This document shows positions 5,232-63,642 of a DNA stretch of 64,000 bases, piece by piece. This stretch comes from Octopus vulgaris. Lineage: Eukaryota. The notes beneath the pieces were generated by a model. The model did no database searches. It saw nothing but the letters and a program-made list of their open reading frames with translations, and had not been told where the DNA came from. Within the stretch, counting starts at the first letter, position 1. The number at the start of each line of letters is the position of its first letter. Where the stretch lies: NCBI GenBank assembly GCA_951406725.2, contig OX597814.1:97216001-97280000 (forward strand), read 5' to 3'. Both the position numbers and the translations under genes were made by a program.

Positions 5232-5447
5232 CAGTAATCCCTCGACTATCGCGGGTGTTACGTTCCAAAACCTCCAACAGAAATAATTAAAATTAAAAAA
5301 AATATAAATACCTATCGGCCACAGAAACCGCGATATAAATTTACATATATTAGCCAGAAAAATCCGTGATGTACTGAGTGCGGGATAGGTGAACCGCGAT
5401 GTACTGAATGCACGATAGGTGAACCGCTATATGACGAGGAAATACTG
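5232..5447. mobile_element. Tigger/pogo-like MITE
   Basis: TA-CAGTAATCCCTCG ... CGAGGAAATACTG-TA termini with TA TSD. Confidence 0.75.
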
Positions 5448-25170: not shown

Positions 25171-25426
25171 TTAAATATCATTACTGGAAAACATTGAAAA
25201 CATGCCTGGCCATGGGGAAATATTACCTTGCTTTGAGACAGGTGAGAGGTTAACGACAGGAAGGGTATCCAATTATAGAAAATCTGCCTTAAATTCCATC
25301 TGATTCATGCAAGCATGAAAAAAGTGGACATTAAAAATGGTGATGATGATGATAATAAGGAGGCAGAGGAGGAAAAAATAGATAATAGTATGCAAAATAA
25401 ATGTGATGTAAAGATAAATCACTTAC

Positions 25427-27414
25427 ATCTGAAGGATACGTTTCGGTATGATTACCAATCTGTTCTTGTTTTAATTCTTCAAGTTCTGATTCCTTGTCAC
25501 TCATGCTGACATTGTGCTTTGGTGAATTTTGAAATAACACGACTGAATGATGTTCAGGTGAGTTTTCCATTGATACGCTTGCATTATGTTCGGGTGAGTT
25601 TTTCATCGATGCACTTGCATTGTGTTCAGGTGAGTTTTTCATCGATACACTTACATTATGTTCAGGTGAGTTTTTCATTGATAGACTTGCATTATGCTCA
25701 GGTGAGTTTTTCATTGATGCACTTGCATTGTGTTCAGGTGAGTTTTTCATTGATACACTTGCATTATGTTCAGGTGAATTTTTCATTGATACACTTGCAT
25801 TATGCTCAGGTGAATTTTTCATTGATACACTTGCATTATGCTCTGGTGAATTTTTCATTGATACACTTGCATTATGCTCAGGTGAATTTTTCATTGATAC
25901 ACTAGCATTATGCTCAGGTGAATTTTTCATTGATACACTAGCATTATTCTCAGGTGAATTTTTCATTGATACACTTGCATTATGCTCAGGTGAATTTTTC
26001 ATTGATACACTTGCATTATGCTCAGGTGAATTTTTCACTGACACTCTTCCATTATGTTCAGGTGAGTTTTTACTAAATACATTTGTATTATGTTCAGGTG
26101 AATTCTTCATCAAAACATATGCATTGCTATCCGGTGATTTCTTAACTAACACATTCATAGGATTTTTTGATGAATTCTTAATCAAAATACATTGATTGTT
26201 CTCAGGAGAATTTTTCACCAGCATGCTTGTAGTCTTCATCAATGAACTGTCAGGATTGTCAGGTGACCTCATTACCAAAACATTTGCATTGCTTCCAGAT
26301 AAACTCTTAATCTTTAGACCTGTATTACCATTGGATAAATTGTCACCCAACAAATTAGTATTGTCAGGTGAGCTTTTAGTAAGTGCATCTATATTGCTTT
26401 CATTTGAATTTTTGCGTTCAAATAAATTTTTTCCTCGAAGTCCATCTGAAGATGCTTTACCTAATATAGGCTTGATTTTATCTTTGCTTGACTTATTTAC
26501 TTTCTCCAAACTTTGTGGAACAGGAACTGCTTTCCTTTTGATACTTGATTTCAGGGCTTTATTTGGTATCTTGTATAGCTTGTCTGGGATATTTTCTTCT
26601 TTTTGTAGCATCCGTTCATCTGCACATTTTTGAGGATCACTATCAATTTTGACATTCAGTTTGTCTTTTTTTAACATTGTGACTTTCTTTAATTCAACAT
26701 TTTCAACATTCTTTGCTCCGGTTGGACTCACAGGAGAACTTGCTGCCCTTGTATCTTTTCTGTATTCTTTTTGTCGAACAATTTGATCATTTTTTTCCAC
26801 TAAAATATTTGGTTCAAGTTTAGGAAATGAATAGTCTTGTTGTGGAAGGGATTGATTGTCTTCTGTATTTTTTATTCTGTCCAATTTGACTGAGTTGATA
26901 AAATTGTCTATATCAGGAGCCGCTTTTTGGTTCACTTTACTTTTGTCTGCTGAATTCATTACTTCAGGATGTTTTTCAAATTGTACTTCACATATGCCAT
27001 TGGTAGCTTCGTAAGTACGTAAGGACCCCTCATTTTCTGCATAATCAAATGTAAGTTCTTTACTGAATCTACATTTTGGCATTTTATTTTCTAATGTCTT
27101 ACTTTTACGCAGTTCTTCTCGGCTGTCAGCCATTTTAACTTTTTCCATTGATCCTCGGTAATCACTAACACTATGTTCACTATGCAAGCTTGTTCTGTCC
27201 AAACTTATGGTGCTGCTTTGACTGAAGATGCTATTGTGACTCATCCTGACATTTTGCCAAGAAGCACCATTTGCATTATTTAAATCAGCATTTCTTGAAT
27301 CTGTCTGAGTCGCAACATCATGCATCTGTACTTTGATCTGATTCCTTGGTACAATAATTATTTCATCATCAGAATGCTCATAAAGTAATGGACGAGTTAA
27401 TCTCTCTGTGGAAC
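25427..27414 (-). CDS. Giant 1988-nt exon of the SLC6 C-terminal tail (low complexity, repeat-containing)
   Basis: Acceptor TTATAG|GT at 27414 (phase 1), stop-free for 662 codons, donor GAT|GTAAGT at 25427. Confidence 0.82.
25496..26215 (-). repeat. Coding minisatellite, 36-bp unit (KNSPEHNASVSM), 20 in-register units
   Basis: 13 near-identical units at 25568-26035, with 2 diverged units on the low side and 5 on the high side. Confidence 0.95.
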
Positions 27415-27620
27415 CTATAAGAGAAAATTAGCATGAAATCTTATATTTATTATTTTAATACATCCATCCAGCCAGCCAGCCATACATCCATATATCCATA
27501 CATACATAGGCTCGTTAGCTTTGGCAGAGACAAAATTGATCCTCAAACGCAGAACCATTCACATGGCAAAAATCTACTGGCCAATTGCATGCCATAACTT
27601 AATGTATAAGATACATACAT

Positions 27621-47135: not shown

Positions 47136-47333
47136 CAGAAGTATGACAGGGGATACACCCATCCACAATATTCGCCAAAACCAGCTGACTTTGTGTTGAA
47201 TCATATGTGTGATATTTGCACAAAACCGTTTTACACCGTAAACCCATGCAATTGCTACACACATACAGATACCTATAATCATCACGGGGAATCCTGTACA
47301 CTCGTCCATCAGTTGTAAAATATAGAGTCCTCC
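47136..47333 (-). CDS. SLC6 exon, TM10-TM11
   Basis: TTTCAG|GGLYILQLMDECTGFPVMIIGICMCVAIAWVYGVKRFCANITHMIQHKVSWFWRILWMGVSPVILL|GTTAGT. Confidence 0.93.
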
Positions 47334-47391
47334 CTGAAAATTGAATCAATATAATTTAAGTAAAGTTAAAATAAATTTAGTAAACTTATCA

Positions 47392-47430
<39 letters not shown>

Positions 47431-47489
47431 GTAATAGAAATAACTACAAGGGTATCAAACTGAAGGTCACAGTGAGGGTCATAGACCAT

Positions 47490-48690
47490 CTCATTAGGGA
47501 CAGAGTCTGCTTACATGAGATGCAGTTCGGTTTTGTGCCAAGTAGAAGCACTACTGATGCCATATTCCTGGTTTGACAACTGCAGGAGAGATACCTAGCT
47601 AAAGATAAACCCCTATACTTAGCTTTTGTGGAGTTGGAGAAAGCCTTTGACAGGGTCCCTCAATCCCTTATCTGGTGAGCGATGTGGAAACTGGAGATTG
47701 ATGAATGGTTAATATGGGCTGTACAGGCCCTATACAGAGAGGCCATTAGTAAGGTTAGGATTGGCAATGAGTATAGTTAAGAATTCTGGGTAGAAGTAGG
47801 GGTCCACCAAAAGCCCTCAGTCCCCTTTTATTCATCATGGTCCTCCAGGCAATAACAGAGGAATTCAAGATGGGTTGCCTCTGGGAGCTCCTCTATGCTG
47901 ATGACCTGGCCCTCATAGTAGAATCACTAGCGGAACTAGAAAAGAAATTTCAGGATGGAAGCAAAGTTTAGAATCAAAAGGCCTTAGAGTTAATGTCGCA
48001 AAGACCAAAGTTCTAGAAAGTAGGAAGGCAAATTCATCACACACACCCTCAGGTAGGTGGCTCTGCACAATCTGTAGGTAGAAACTCCATAAGATGTACC
48101 CAGTGTAAGCTATGGGCACATAAGAGGTGCAGCAACATCAAAGGAAGATTAACCGAGAAGATAGCTTTCGTGTGCGGCAGATGCACAGGGGCAATAAATA
48201 CCACAGATGCTCAGAAAACAGATTCCATCACACTCCAGGGGAAGAAACTAGAAGTAGTTGATAGCTTCCATACCTAGGTGACCAAGTTAATAGTCAGGGT
48301 GGATGCTCAGAGAGTGTTATCACTTGAATAAGAATAGCCTGAGTAAAGTTCAGAAAGCTTCTACCCCTACTGGTGACAAAGGGCCTCTCGCTCAGAGTGA
48401 AAGGTAGATTGTACGATGCATATGTGTGAACTGCCATGCTTCATGGCAGTGAAACATGGGCCGTGACTGCGGAGTACATGCATAGGCTCAAAAGAAATGA
48501 AGCTAGCATGATCCGCTGGATGTGTAATGTCAGTGTGCACACATGACAGAGTGTAAGCACCTTGGACATAAGAAGCATTGGATGTGGCGTGCAAGAGAGA
48601 CGTTTGCGCTGGTATGGTCATGTACTATGGTTGGATGAAGAGAAATGTGTGAAGAAGTGCCACTCCCAAACAGTTGAAGGAATTCAGGGT
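47490..48690 (+). mobile_element. RTE-clade LINE fragment with PHD-like finger
   Basis: AFVELEKAFDRVP, LLYADDL (YADD at 47894), C4HC3 pattern at 48064-48184, RRLRWYGHV; several stops. Confidence 0.85.
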
Positions 48691-48858
48691 AAAGAGTCTT
48701 GCTCAAGAACACAACACGCAGCCTGGTCCGGGATTCGAGCTCACAATCTCACGATCGTAAGCTCGACGCTCTAACCACTGAGCCATGTGCCTTCACTATA
48801 TATGTATATATATATATTTAGTGAAGGGAAGAAATGGAGCTGAGCGAAGATTCTACAT

Positions 48859-48965
48859 AATTCCTTTTATTATCTTCTACACATGTTTCAAAGGCCGCAA
48901 ATTTCCAAATTCGGATTGAATAAGGAGACCATTTGCAGCATTCTCTTCAGGAAAATCCAGGAATT
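48859..48965 (-). ncRNA. Type I hammerhead ribozyme (sense to the SLC6 pre-mRNA)
   Basis: Reverse complement of the 49433-49539 motif; CUGAAGA core at 48950-48944, GUA triplet at 48880-48878. Confidence 0.72.
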
Positions 48966-49432
48966 TAAAAATCCAAAACAAATGCGCAGCAAGGTAGAAC
49001 AAAGCGCTCCTTAGGAGCCCATGAAAGCACAAAACTGTCTCTCACTGTACGTTGACGTCTGGGGGGTGGTGGTGGAGGCCGACGAAAATGTCCGTTGGAA
49101 TCAATCGGGTTCAGACAGCGGTCAATCCTGGTAGTGGGAGAAATACTGAAAACCAAATGGTGTGAATATATTCTGTGTAATTAATGTTCAGATTGTTTTA
49201 AGAATTAAGGCTATCTAATATAGGTGTGGGACCCTGCCTACATGTATGTGTGTGCATGCCTGTGTAAGTGTGGGAGTCTGTCAAGCAGCGGGTGGAGGGA
49301 AAGAGAACTGCTGATTTTGTTGGTCGTGTCTGTGTGTCCGTCTGTGGTCAGTTTGTAAAGAGATAACTTGTCAAATCAAGGAGAACATAATTCTTGATCT
49401 CGCTTCTAAAAAAGTAGCGGACCAAACGCTAA

Positions 49433-49539
49433 AATTCCTGGATTTTCCTGAAGAGAATGCTGCAAATGGTCTCCTTATTCAATCCGAATTTGGAAATTTG
49501 CAGCCTTTGAAACATGTGTAGAAGATAATAAAAGGAATT
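49433..49539 (+). ncRNA. Type I hammerhead ribozyme
   Basis: Stem I AUUUUC/GAAGAU plus AAUUCCU/AGGAAUU beyond an internal loop; core CUGAAGA 49448-49454; stem II GCUGCAAAU/AUUUGCAGC; GAAA 49509-49512; minimal stem III C-AUGU-G; GUA triplet 49518-49520. Confidence 0.75.
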
Positions 49540-49729
49540 GTGTAGAATCTTCGTTCAGCTCCATTTCTTCCCTTCACTAAATATATCGAACTTCAATTAT
49601 CCGCGCTAAGGCACGGTTGAGACACCCCAAGGTCGTAACTTCAATCGTGTCTTTTCTGTTGTGATTTTTGCTACCCGGGATCGGTTAAATTTTGAATAAT
49701 CCTTAACAAGATAATTCATTTATCCATTT

Positions 49730-49770
<41 letters not shown>

Positions 49771-51118
49771 ATCAAATATAATGTATGCACATACACACAC
49801 ACACACATATATGCATGCATATGTGTGTTTGCATATATATATATATGCAAACACACATATGCATGCATATATATGTGTGTGTGTGTGTATGTGCATACAT
49901 TATATTTGATAAAAAGCAAAAAAAAAAAAAAAAACTATGAAAATCTGTTGGTTTCTTTGGTGCCACTGTAGAAATGCAAAGAGAGTTGTAAAGCACTGCA
50001 GGGTCATCAATACAGGTGCAGAAGTAGCCAAAATAAAATATGGAATAATATTGTTAATTTCAGCCAAGTTATTATGTCTTTTCTTGGTTTTATTTTTCGA
50101 CACTGGCTAATAGAAGTAAAACTTGATCTCTAACTTAGAATCACATGAATATGCATGTTAGTAAAATGAATATGTATATGCATGGTAAGTGTATATGCTT
50201 TCTCAATTACACATTCTGAGGACGATATATTATTGTTCTCTGTTGTCCTGAGAAAGTTGTTATCTGGTAGTTACAAGGATGACAAGATATTTGTTAAAGG
50301 AGACTTTAATGCTAGATTAGGGACTGAGCATGATATATAGCTTTCCCTGGGAAAACATGGCCTTAGTAAAACCAACAGCAATATACTGCATCTCCTGCAT
50401 TTATGCAATGACTATAACCTGGCTATCAGCAAGACTGTTTTTCTTCAAAAAAGCAAGTACATCTAGCAGTAGGAAATTCATGTGAACATAGAAAATGGAT
50501 GATAATAATGATGATAATGATGATATATATATAATACATGCAAACATATATACATACATAATATACATACACACACACACACACACATGCATGCATGCAT
50601 ACATACATTCATGCATGCATACATACATACATACATACATACATACATACATACATACATACATACATACATACATACATACATACATACACACATACAC
50701 ACAGAGCAATAGAAACTGATGTGGATTCTCCTAATCCAATTAATTTGTGGCACAGCAAAGATAGGTAAGACATTCCCAAAATTCTCCATCTGAGATTCTA
50801 ATGTGAATAGGTGCACACACCTGGGTGTATGCATCGACAATTCAACCAACATACCAACTTAACCACATATTTACAAACACTGGGAACTCTCTTAACTCAA
50901 AAAGTCTTGTTGCTTTGTTAGCAACCAGCTTGAACTCTCTCAAGAAGAACTCAAAGAAAAATCAATCATTCATTCATTTATCCATACATGCATACATACA
51001 TACATACATACATACATACATACATACATACATACATACATACATACATACATACATACAAACATACATACATTCATACATATATACATACATCAACAAA
51101 AATAGTTATGTTTCTTAC

Positions 51119-51363
51119 CTCTGTTGTCATAGGTAAACCCATGAAGTAAAGTAACATACAAACAATAAATAACACTGTCACTCTCTTTTTACGCAAAACT
51201 TCAATTTTTTCATCAATAATAGCAGTGACAACAGTTTCGACAACGGTAATTTCTGTGCTTAAACCCATCATTACAAGCATCAGGAAGAAAAGGATTGCCC
51301 ACAGTGGGGCTGCTGGAAGGTATGTAAGGGCAGCAGGATAAGCTGTAAATGCAAGTCCAACAT
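51119..51363 (-). CDS. SLC6 exon, EL4-TM8-TM9
   Basis: CTCCTAG|DVGLAFTAYPAALTYLPAAPLWAILFFLMLVMMGLSTEITVVETVVTAIIDE...GLPMTTE|GTAAG. Confidence 0.94.
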
Positions 51364-62530: not shown

Positions 62531-63642
62531 ATATATATATGTATTTATAAACAAACTTTGGAGAGCAAGTGTATGCACACACACACACAAACACGTACAT
62601 ATGTATGTAATTAATAATGTAATAGCATGTATGATACATTATTAGTGAGTTTAGAGCTCAGTGATTGGTTCCACATTAAACTCCTCTATTTTATGCATAA
62701 TGAATTCAATCAACACATTGGAAAGTAAACACAAGTGCAATGTCTGAGTGACATAAAATTAAAAGAAGTCAGGTTACTGATGTTCTTATGTTTTAATATA
62801 CACGTGTTTCAATGAATCAGCAGCTCACTTCCTCAGTATTTCAGCAAAATATCAAGAAAATAAATGATTAAAGAAATAAAAAGCCTAAATGTTTACTGAT
62901 AGCATTTATGCTGTTTGGCACAACAGAAGGCAGCAATACTGCAAGATGCCAAAATCATTGTAATCTTCAGATGTCAACAAATGAAGTGAATGTCACACAG
63001 ATCAAATTGTGTGTAGGGTGCATGCACACACACACGCACACAGCTATGTGGTTAAGAAGTTTGCTTTGCAACTACCTAGTTTAATTCTTCAGTGTTTTAA
63101 CTAGTCATATCCGACCAAAATATTCTACCTGTTTGATGTTCAAACCAGCCAGACCTGACCTCTCACACTTATCTTACTTTACAATGTCATTCTAAAAGAA
63201 TCAATCACATCATTGAAATCATGAAGCTATGAGACAACGTATGATTAAATCAAGTCAATGTGAATAAATAATCAACACATTTGACAATAATCTGAAAGCT
63301 AAAGGGTTAGGTTTCATTCCTACTGTCTGGCTCTGTGGTCAAGTGTCTTCTATCGTAGCCTTGGGTTGACTAATGCCTTGTGGGTAGAACTGGAAATAGA
63401 TACTATACTGAATCATGTGATGTGTGAGTGAGTGTTCATGACAATCTATGTATATGTACATGTTCTCTTACATACATATAAGATGAAAGAGAAAAAGAGA
63501 AAAAGGAATAATACTTGGATTTTATAGTGAAGTGTCAAGGGATTTCACTATTGTTGACTTTGTAAGAACAAAATAAGTTCAGTTGTAATTTTCTAATTTG
63601 GTTCAATTAACAAGAGATAATCAAAACTAAGCCTGAACTTAC

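Follow-up and report, generated by a model that had tools for sequence, protein, structure and literature searches.

Among retroelements with hammerhead ribozymes, Penelope-like elements (PLEs) are the closest described counterparts of the motif considered here. Their minimal hammerheads, as set out by Cervera & de la Pena (2014, PMC4209133), are of type I topology, lie in the pseudo-LTR and combine a weak palindromic stem III with an enlarged stem II; where that study deals with metazoan elements, it reports no cleavage for monomers and weak activity for multimers, and it already records opposite-strand copies 100-700 bp apart. For the Poseidon element PAc of Anolis, the published account describes two start points of reverse transcription downstream of the hammerhead and uncut RNA as the main template, with a ribozyme that needs protein and is dispensable for insertion in vitro (Frangieh et al. 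2024, PMC11167929). The Hydra clade, which includes Hydra-1_Obim, is described as having a single reverse transcriptase (RT)-endonuclease ORF with DKT for DKG, KDHK, no CCHH, and CxxC and CxH near the C-terminus, as well as a (TA)n target, inverted 5'-truncated copies and, close to the 3' end, a hammerhead whose stem III is palindromic (Craig et al. 2021, PMC8557442). The role of the hammerheads in PLEs is presented as still open (PMC8557442, PMC11167929).

The window analysed here, a stretch of 64,000 nucleotides from Octopus vulgaris, very probably contains a hammerhead of a PLE end repeat (pseudo-LTR), present twice in a truncated fold-back insertion within an intron; intact tandem elements would cut only as a dimer, and the window copy is predicted to be inactive. 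The literature found on octopus hammerhead ribozymes and cephalopod Penelope hammerheads does not describe the family, which may be catalogued in Repbase or Dfam or in subscription papers.

The motif occupies 49433-49539 of the plus strand, antisense to the host gene. An initial annotation, made from the sequence alone, had listed a complete set of core nucleotides, and they lie where it placed them: CUGAAGA (C3-A9) at 49448-49454, GAAA at 49509-49512 and GUA at 49518-49520, with cleavage predicted after A49520. The conserved elements C3-U-G-A-N-G-A9, G12-A-A-A15.1 and U16.1-H17 follow one another in order. Stem I, also as first described, has an outer helix of 7 bp (49433-49439/49533-49539) and an inner helix of 6 bp including one U·G (49442-49447/49521-49526), separated by an internal loop in which GG (49440-49441) faces AAUAAA (49527-49532). 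The long stem II with a large loop is equally real: its arm of 54 nt (49455-49508) separates the core halves and runs from the closing pair G49455·U49508 through two A-U pairs, a U·C mismatch and 9 bp to a 28-nt loop able to form a second short hairpin, in total 12 pairs and one mismatch. Stem III is minimal, as proposed, but the palindrome ACAUGU with which it was said to overlap is not its working register. The predicted dimer register is the self-complementary 8-mer ACAUGUGU (49512-49519), with two central U·G pairs, and ACAUGU (49512-49517) competes with it at equal predicted energy. With three helices, of which stem I is open-ended, the topology is that of type I, and stem III would have only 2-3 bp in a monomer. 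The assignment to the known class of type I hammerheads of PLEs is well supported, and cleavage after GUA is predicted from the sequence.

A type I descriptor matches twice in the window, at this motif and at an inverted copy, and in none of 100 shuffled windows. Taken alone, the 107-mer folds with z = -2.1 (6/200 shuffles equally good); its best fold, in which AUUUUC pairs with GAGAAU, is not the hammerhead, and a hammerhead-compatible fold is predicted 1.1 kcal/mol above it. The search with the Rfam model Hammerhead_1 (RF00163), suggested initially as a check, gives an alignment that falls short of the gathering score of 34 bits: in a 201-base search the model covers 49442-49526 and scores 17.7 bits (E 0.081). 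The core positions are all aligned, as are stems I and III, whereas the 10-position stem II region of the model has to hold 50 nt here. A search of the whole window at the gathering score returned no matches, and an E-value search over 5 kb returned microsatellite noise with no hammerhead among it.

Stems I and II are longer than the minimal consensus of PMC4209133, and the 54 nt between the core halves compare with 12-26 nt in 26 Hydra rows of File S2 (PMC8557442, our count). A long stem II arm has a printed PLE precedent because PLE-X1_sMoe (File S2, PMC8557442) has an arm of about 54 nt as well; that element, unlike the octopus family, comes from a plant, lacks an endonuclease, targets rDNA and belongs to another clade. 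The G·U closing pair had been taken initially as possibly lowering activity, and G10.1-C11.1 is called highly conserved in PMC4209133. In our reading of the 26 Hydra rows of File S2, only seven close with G-C, against four with G·U, 14 with U·U and one with U·C (PMC8557442). Among 18 related octopus copies there are 13 G·U, four G-C and one G·G, the young subfamily having G-C. Because G·U is ordinary for the Hydra clade and is carried by the whole window subfamily, it is not read as decay.

An inverted repeat with 155-bp arms (48812-48966 and 49432-49586, 98% identical) includes the motif in one of them, so that there is a second hammerhead on the minus strand, at 48859-48965, which the initial annotation had overlooked. 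It differs in a single place, where G·U replaces an A-U pair of stem II, has its predicted cut after 48878 and is sense to the host pre-mRNA; the pair is inverted like the opposite-strand copies of PMC4209133. The arms belong to an insertion of ~920 bp, from about 48812 to 49735, that is flanked by TA-rich runs and in which no coding sequence was found. Its minus-strand part (48812-49434) is a 623-bp 3' fragment that begins about 105 nt past the ORF stop in the 3' UTR, includes the hammerhead and finishes at a 'short' end 66 nt past the cut site. It is 97.8% identical to its closest relative, the ORF-bearing copy L080, which continues into frameshifted RT-endonuclease sequence (aa 176-897 of the element protein P0001). 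The plus-strand part (49432-49735) is a 3' fragment of about 300 bp from the same element in the opposite direction, with the hammerhead and a 'long' end, which lies about 215 nt beyond the cut. The two meet over a common AAA at 49432-49434, and the target is preserved as a TA-rich run on the left (48797-48811) and an (AT)18 microsatellite on the right (49732-49767). The insertion is thus a pair of 5'-truncated ends of a Hydra-like Penelope-like retroelement in fold-back arrangement.

It lies in a GT-AG intron of 3785 bp (47334-51118, minus strand) of an SLC6/SNF-family transporter gene. The flanking exons, at about 51119-51363 and 47136-47333, are in frame, their outer ends being read by eye, and the host gene has Pfam SNF matches with E 5e-21 and 3e-16. 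The same intron contains a decayed RT fragment of a non-LTR retroelement (47500-48700, plus strand). This fragment includes part of a PHD finger (Pfam E 9.5e-6), and a piece of a tRNA-like SINE comes after it, at about 48690-48795. Directly to the right of the insertion, at 49767-49914, is a near-perfect inverted repeat built of microsatellite (46-nt arms at 100%, 52-nt arms at 94%), which yields spurious miRNA matches. Elsewhere in the window, a 698-aa open frame on the minus strand (25331-27427), in which a 36-bp unit encoding 12 aa is repeated 15.6 times in tandem, probably represents a large exon of a host gene.

The motif has 1377 first-look genomic candidates, 40 of which were scored; exact patterns give 158 copies of the window subfamily and 1933 of a younger one, and a third subfamily has 1382 candidates. 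The copy numbers are lower bounds because they were counted from exact patterns, and the copy count named as a check in the initial annotation comes out at hundreds to thousands for the family. Tandem units with a period of 3625 bp occur in L065-L067, and L031 is a near-full element copy with an inverted end. An 899-codon open frame is found in 20 of 114 scored RT matches (counted by eye), and the intact element protein P0001 (L066:4286-6985, minus strand), counted from its first Met, has 895 aa. Among runs recorded as RNA, none was found to contain the stretch. When the intact element is divided into 30 bins, 28-29 of them are covered by contigs from four runs that were guessed to be RNA; these contigs may contain DNA and show neither ends nor strand. 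Five rows (L014, L015, L077-L079; G000:C20, 4.24-4.40 Mb) represent one fold-back insertion beside an arm of subfamily B, the fivefold occurrence of which apparently arose by segmental duplication.

P0001 carries the motifs RWL, DKT, KDHK and YRDD, a C-terminal YxG (YVG), CxxC and CxH. It is 29-42% identical to the best 120 of 411 database homologues, 10 of which were aligned. Pfam gave no match on P0001 and a GIY-YIG match in one of the 10 aligned homologues (E 0.0011), so the assignment of the endonuclease rests on the motif alignment. By motifs and alignment, the family has the single ORF of EN+ Penelope-like elements, with a PLE-type RT and a putative C-terminal GIY-YIG-type endonuclease. 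It also has their arrangement, with tandem or inverted truncated copies, a hammerhead in the end repeat and an optional tail; a Naiad reading was ruled out on domain order and arrangement.

The traits given above for the Hydra clade (PMC8557442) recur in the octopus family, from the single ORF with DKT, KDHK, no CCHH, and CxxC and CxH at the end of the endonuclease to the (TA)n insertion, the inverted 5'-truncated copies and, near the 3' end, a canonical-core hammerhead in which stem III is palindromic. The protein motifs of P0001 also fit Hydra-1_Obim as given in the supplement of PMC8557442, and the core start CUGAAGAG is common to both; that element is a different family with a short hammerhead. 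RWL stands at the aligned place of the N-terminal RWK of the Hydra clade. Other features set the octopus family apart. The CxCX5C linker, present in 106 of the 120 best-listed homologues, is absent from P0001 and replaced by a long low-complexity stretch; the unit of 3625 bp encodes 895 aa, whereas Hydra-clade elements are generally under 3 kb (PMC8557442) and the homologues among the best 120 listed have a median of 706 aa; and about 149 nt separate the long end from the short one, where the published tail measures 30-40 bp (PMC8557442). The long stem II, the missing linker and the long tail are traits of the family. The element is called 'Hydra-like' rather than filed as a member of the clade because CxCX5C is missing, the unit is longer than usual and the named members were compared by motifs and published descriptions. 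P0001 also has two long insertions relative to its homologues, at residues of about 490-560 and 630-775, the second being low-complexity and rich in N, S and G; this one replaces the cysteine linker thought to help microsatellite targeting, and the family still targets (TA)n.

For covariation, 18 related copies were hand-picked across subfamilies, all chosen with intact cores. The named structure pairs 91.7% of cells, against 33-49% for slid controls. Two-sided change is seen in 6/35 pairs, and five of these are in stem II, which supplies the compensatory changes that the initial annotation had looked to genomic copies for; the outer stem I has none in seven pairs. None of 500 shuffles matched the cell count or the covariation score; two of the five measures, both of pair type, are weak, being reached by 24/500 and 35/500 shuffles. 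As the 18 copies are related, the covariation is supportive and does not amount to a probability. Unguided RNAalifold recovers stem II and neither stem I nor stem III, with a covariation term of -0.11. The core bases are invariant in 18/18 copies except for the free N7 (A/U) and the cut base (A/C).

The eight nucleotides of stem III are self-complementary across subfamilies, as ACAUGUGU, ACAUAUGU or ACACGUGU, and in a further family (L089) as ACGUACGU. The central pair is U·G in 11, U-A in five and C-G in two of the 18 copies. In a survey of 143 redundant matches, made with a pattern that fixed the outer bases, ACAUGUGU was found 90 times, ACAUAUGU 31, ACACGUGU 17, and ACAUGCGU and ACGUACGU twice each, with one unrelated 8-mer. 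The predicted self-duplex energy is -6.0 kcal/mol for the window 8-mer and -7.0, -10.3 and -9.8 kcal/mol for those of other subfamilies. Pairable central bases of stem III matter only between two molecules, and this favours the known dimer mechanism; the short self-complementary stem III is that of dimer-type PLE hammerheads, and the initial view of a Penelope-like type I ribozyme suited to dimer action stands.

The word 'extended' in the initial annotation fares less well. A family hammerhead that works as an extended monomer, with the AAUAAA loop of stem I contacting stem II, is unlikely. The tertiary contact of type I hammerheads canonically involves a short loop 2, and stem II here has a 28-nt loop in its place. 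Besides lacking two-sided change, outer stem I is poorly kept in the young subfamily, and AAUAAA, which follows the cut site in all three aligned subfamilies, a point in favour of such a contact, is absent from the L089 family. The G·U in place of G10.1-C11.1 and the 54-nt stem II arm are further departures from the canonical extended type I. The energetics are kinder to a monomer, a fold with a 2-bp stem III being predicted only 2.2 kcal/mol above the best fold, and axolotl hammerheads with a stem III of 2 bp are reported to reach 22% cleavage in an hour as monomers (PMC7229834). In a monomer, however, the two central bases of stem III would be free loop, yet they stay pairable (U·G, U-A and C-G).

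Dimer cleavage in the intact tandem elements can be placed in the following scheme. Transcription would run through tandem 3625-bp units, in which the cut site of each hammerhead follows the ORF stop by 670 nt and precedes the next ATG by 267 nt. Pairing between two hammerhead copies through stem III, whose 8 nt are self-complementary, would then lead to slow cleavage after GUA, probably with help from the protein of the element. The double hammerhead is predicted to lie 6-10 kcal/mol below two monomers in 5/5 sequences tried. Insertions would mostly be copied from uncut (or re-ligated) RNA, with copying starting at two preferred points that lie 66 and about 215 nt downstream of the cut, to leave one short and one long end. 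The element ends have this form: 86 arms comprise 39 short, 46 long and one other, and 25 of 27 divergent pairs join one long and one short end, the remainder being one internal tandem junction and one pair with a deleted end; five of the rows in this tally stem from a single duplicated insertion. The pairing of a long with a short end agrees with a two-start 'tail' signature, the gap here being about 149 nt instead of 30-40 and, since both ends lie beyond an intact motif, the templates would have been uncut or re-ligated. Two start points downstream of the hammerhead and an uncut template are likewise features of PAc, whose starts are inside the ORF and 30-40 nt apart (PMC11167929), whereas here both, as judged from genomic ends only, would precede the ATG and be about 149 nt apart. 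A more speculative and rather doubtful addition is that the 54-nt stem II arm serves as a docking site for the protein of the element, coupling the dimerisation of tandem units 3.6 kb apart to two-start copying. Were this so, the family, with its many intact copies and its natural variants of stem III and the closing pair in one genome, would allow the function of PLE hammerheads to be tested directly.

Frequent use of cut RNA as template would make arms begin at the cut site, and 5' junctions were examined on this rationale. In the window subfamily there is one foreign junction at the cut site, with 6-nt microhomology, against 158 intact copies; the inverted arm of L080 also starts there. The young subfamily has 17 rows at the cut site, which reduce to 14 arms in 12 insertions when one small deletion and two likely duplicates are set aside, compared with 11 rows at -5 (eight without three local indels) and eight uninspected rows at -20 (binomial P = 0.09). 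Several of the cut-site arms are near-perfect hairpins with their apex at the site, and in 41 short hairpins judged by eye the apexes are spread from +8 to -7, with six falling on the stem III palindrome. In subfamily B, which is independent and whose junctions are uninspected, one lies at the site against six and two at the control positions. Because the hairpin apexes are spread over the neighbourhood and subfamily B did not replicate the result, a cleavage footprint was rejected, enrichment of 5' junctions at the cut site being unsupported in the window, young and B subfamilies. This agrees with the uncut RNA template published for PAc (PMC11167929).

The same observations could be turned against any part for cleavage in the cycle of the element, the motif then being kept for its shape, as a protein docking site. 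The cut site shows no excess of 5' junctions, both element ends are downstream of an intact motif, so that the templates would be uncut, and core mutants of the anole ribozyme left insertion in vitro unaffected (PMC11167929). The invariance of the core in the 18 copies, albeit ones chosen with intact cores, is nevertheless the pattern expected of catalysis, and retention for shape is considered very unlikely.

Whether cleaving or not in its parents, the ribozyme is likely silent where it lies in the window. With the minus strand folded, the whole insertion is predicted to form an inter-arm duplex of -387.6 kcal/mol (z -20). On either strand the antisense arm would be transcribed first, trapping the ribozyme in 155 bp of duplex and leaving the insertion at this locus a passive relic; in co-transcriptional folding a hammerhead could form briefly ahead of the long duplex. 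No same-strand partner for a dimer was found at the locus, and for the window sequence the double hammerhead is predicted 7.6 kcal/mol above the best cofold, as against 0.6-3.6 for three other subfamilies. Inactivity in place is predicted by folding from the pairing of the inverted arm, the missing partner and the unfavourable double hammerhead, and an alternative local fold also makes activity of this copy doubtful. The inverted arm, the partner and the double hammerhead bear too on the idea that the minus-strand copy (48859-48965) cuts the SLC6 pre-mRNA within the intron and so affects the host gene. The core of that copy is intact and its orientation is that of the host transcript, but transcription reaches the antisense arm about 470 nt before it, and the two pair over 155 bp at 98%; the dimer partner and a favourable double hammerhead are wanting as just described, and the copy, which belongs to a large family and is young, shows no sign of selection specific to this locus. 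Cutting of the host transcript is accordingly held to be most improbable. Finally, retrozymes derive from PLE end repeats (10.64898/2026.07.22.740005) and the window insertion is without coding sequence, but a non-autonomous retrozyme unit or a chance match can be virtually dismissed, as the copies are inverted rather than tandem, the longer fragment runs into ORF sequence in L080 and chance gave no match in 100 shuffled windows. A non-LTR retrozyme, as a direct tandem of short non-coding units, was rejected likewise, the locus holding an inverted pair from an ORF-bearing element.

The window copy itself matters little, as one of hundreds of truncated ends and predicted to be silent. The family, by contrast, is a usable test set, since its dimer palindrome and closing pair vary naturally, intact parents exist and its long, covarying stem II is missed by the Rfam model.

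Two further hammerhead-like loci were noted. The L089 locus (G000:C10:40114300-40119700) holds, at 5234 and 4641 on the minus strand, two identical hammerheads with a long stem II, in direct repeat 593 bp apart; they belong to the other family, with ACGUACGU as stem III, and are a candidate retrozyme-like unit. In the window, a third and unrelated hammerhead-like motif lies on the minus strand at 62773-62855, with a short stem II, a CUGAGGA core, ACACGUGU as stem III and a weak stem I. Model R1 gives it 26.7 bits, its folding is not superior to that of shuffled sequences, and it has six other genomic matches at 79-85%; it is probably an old, decayed PLE end.
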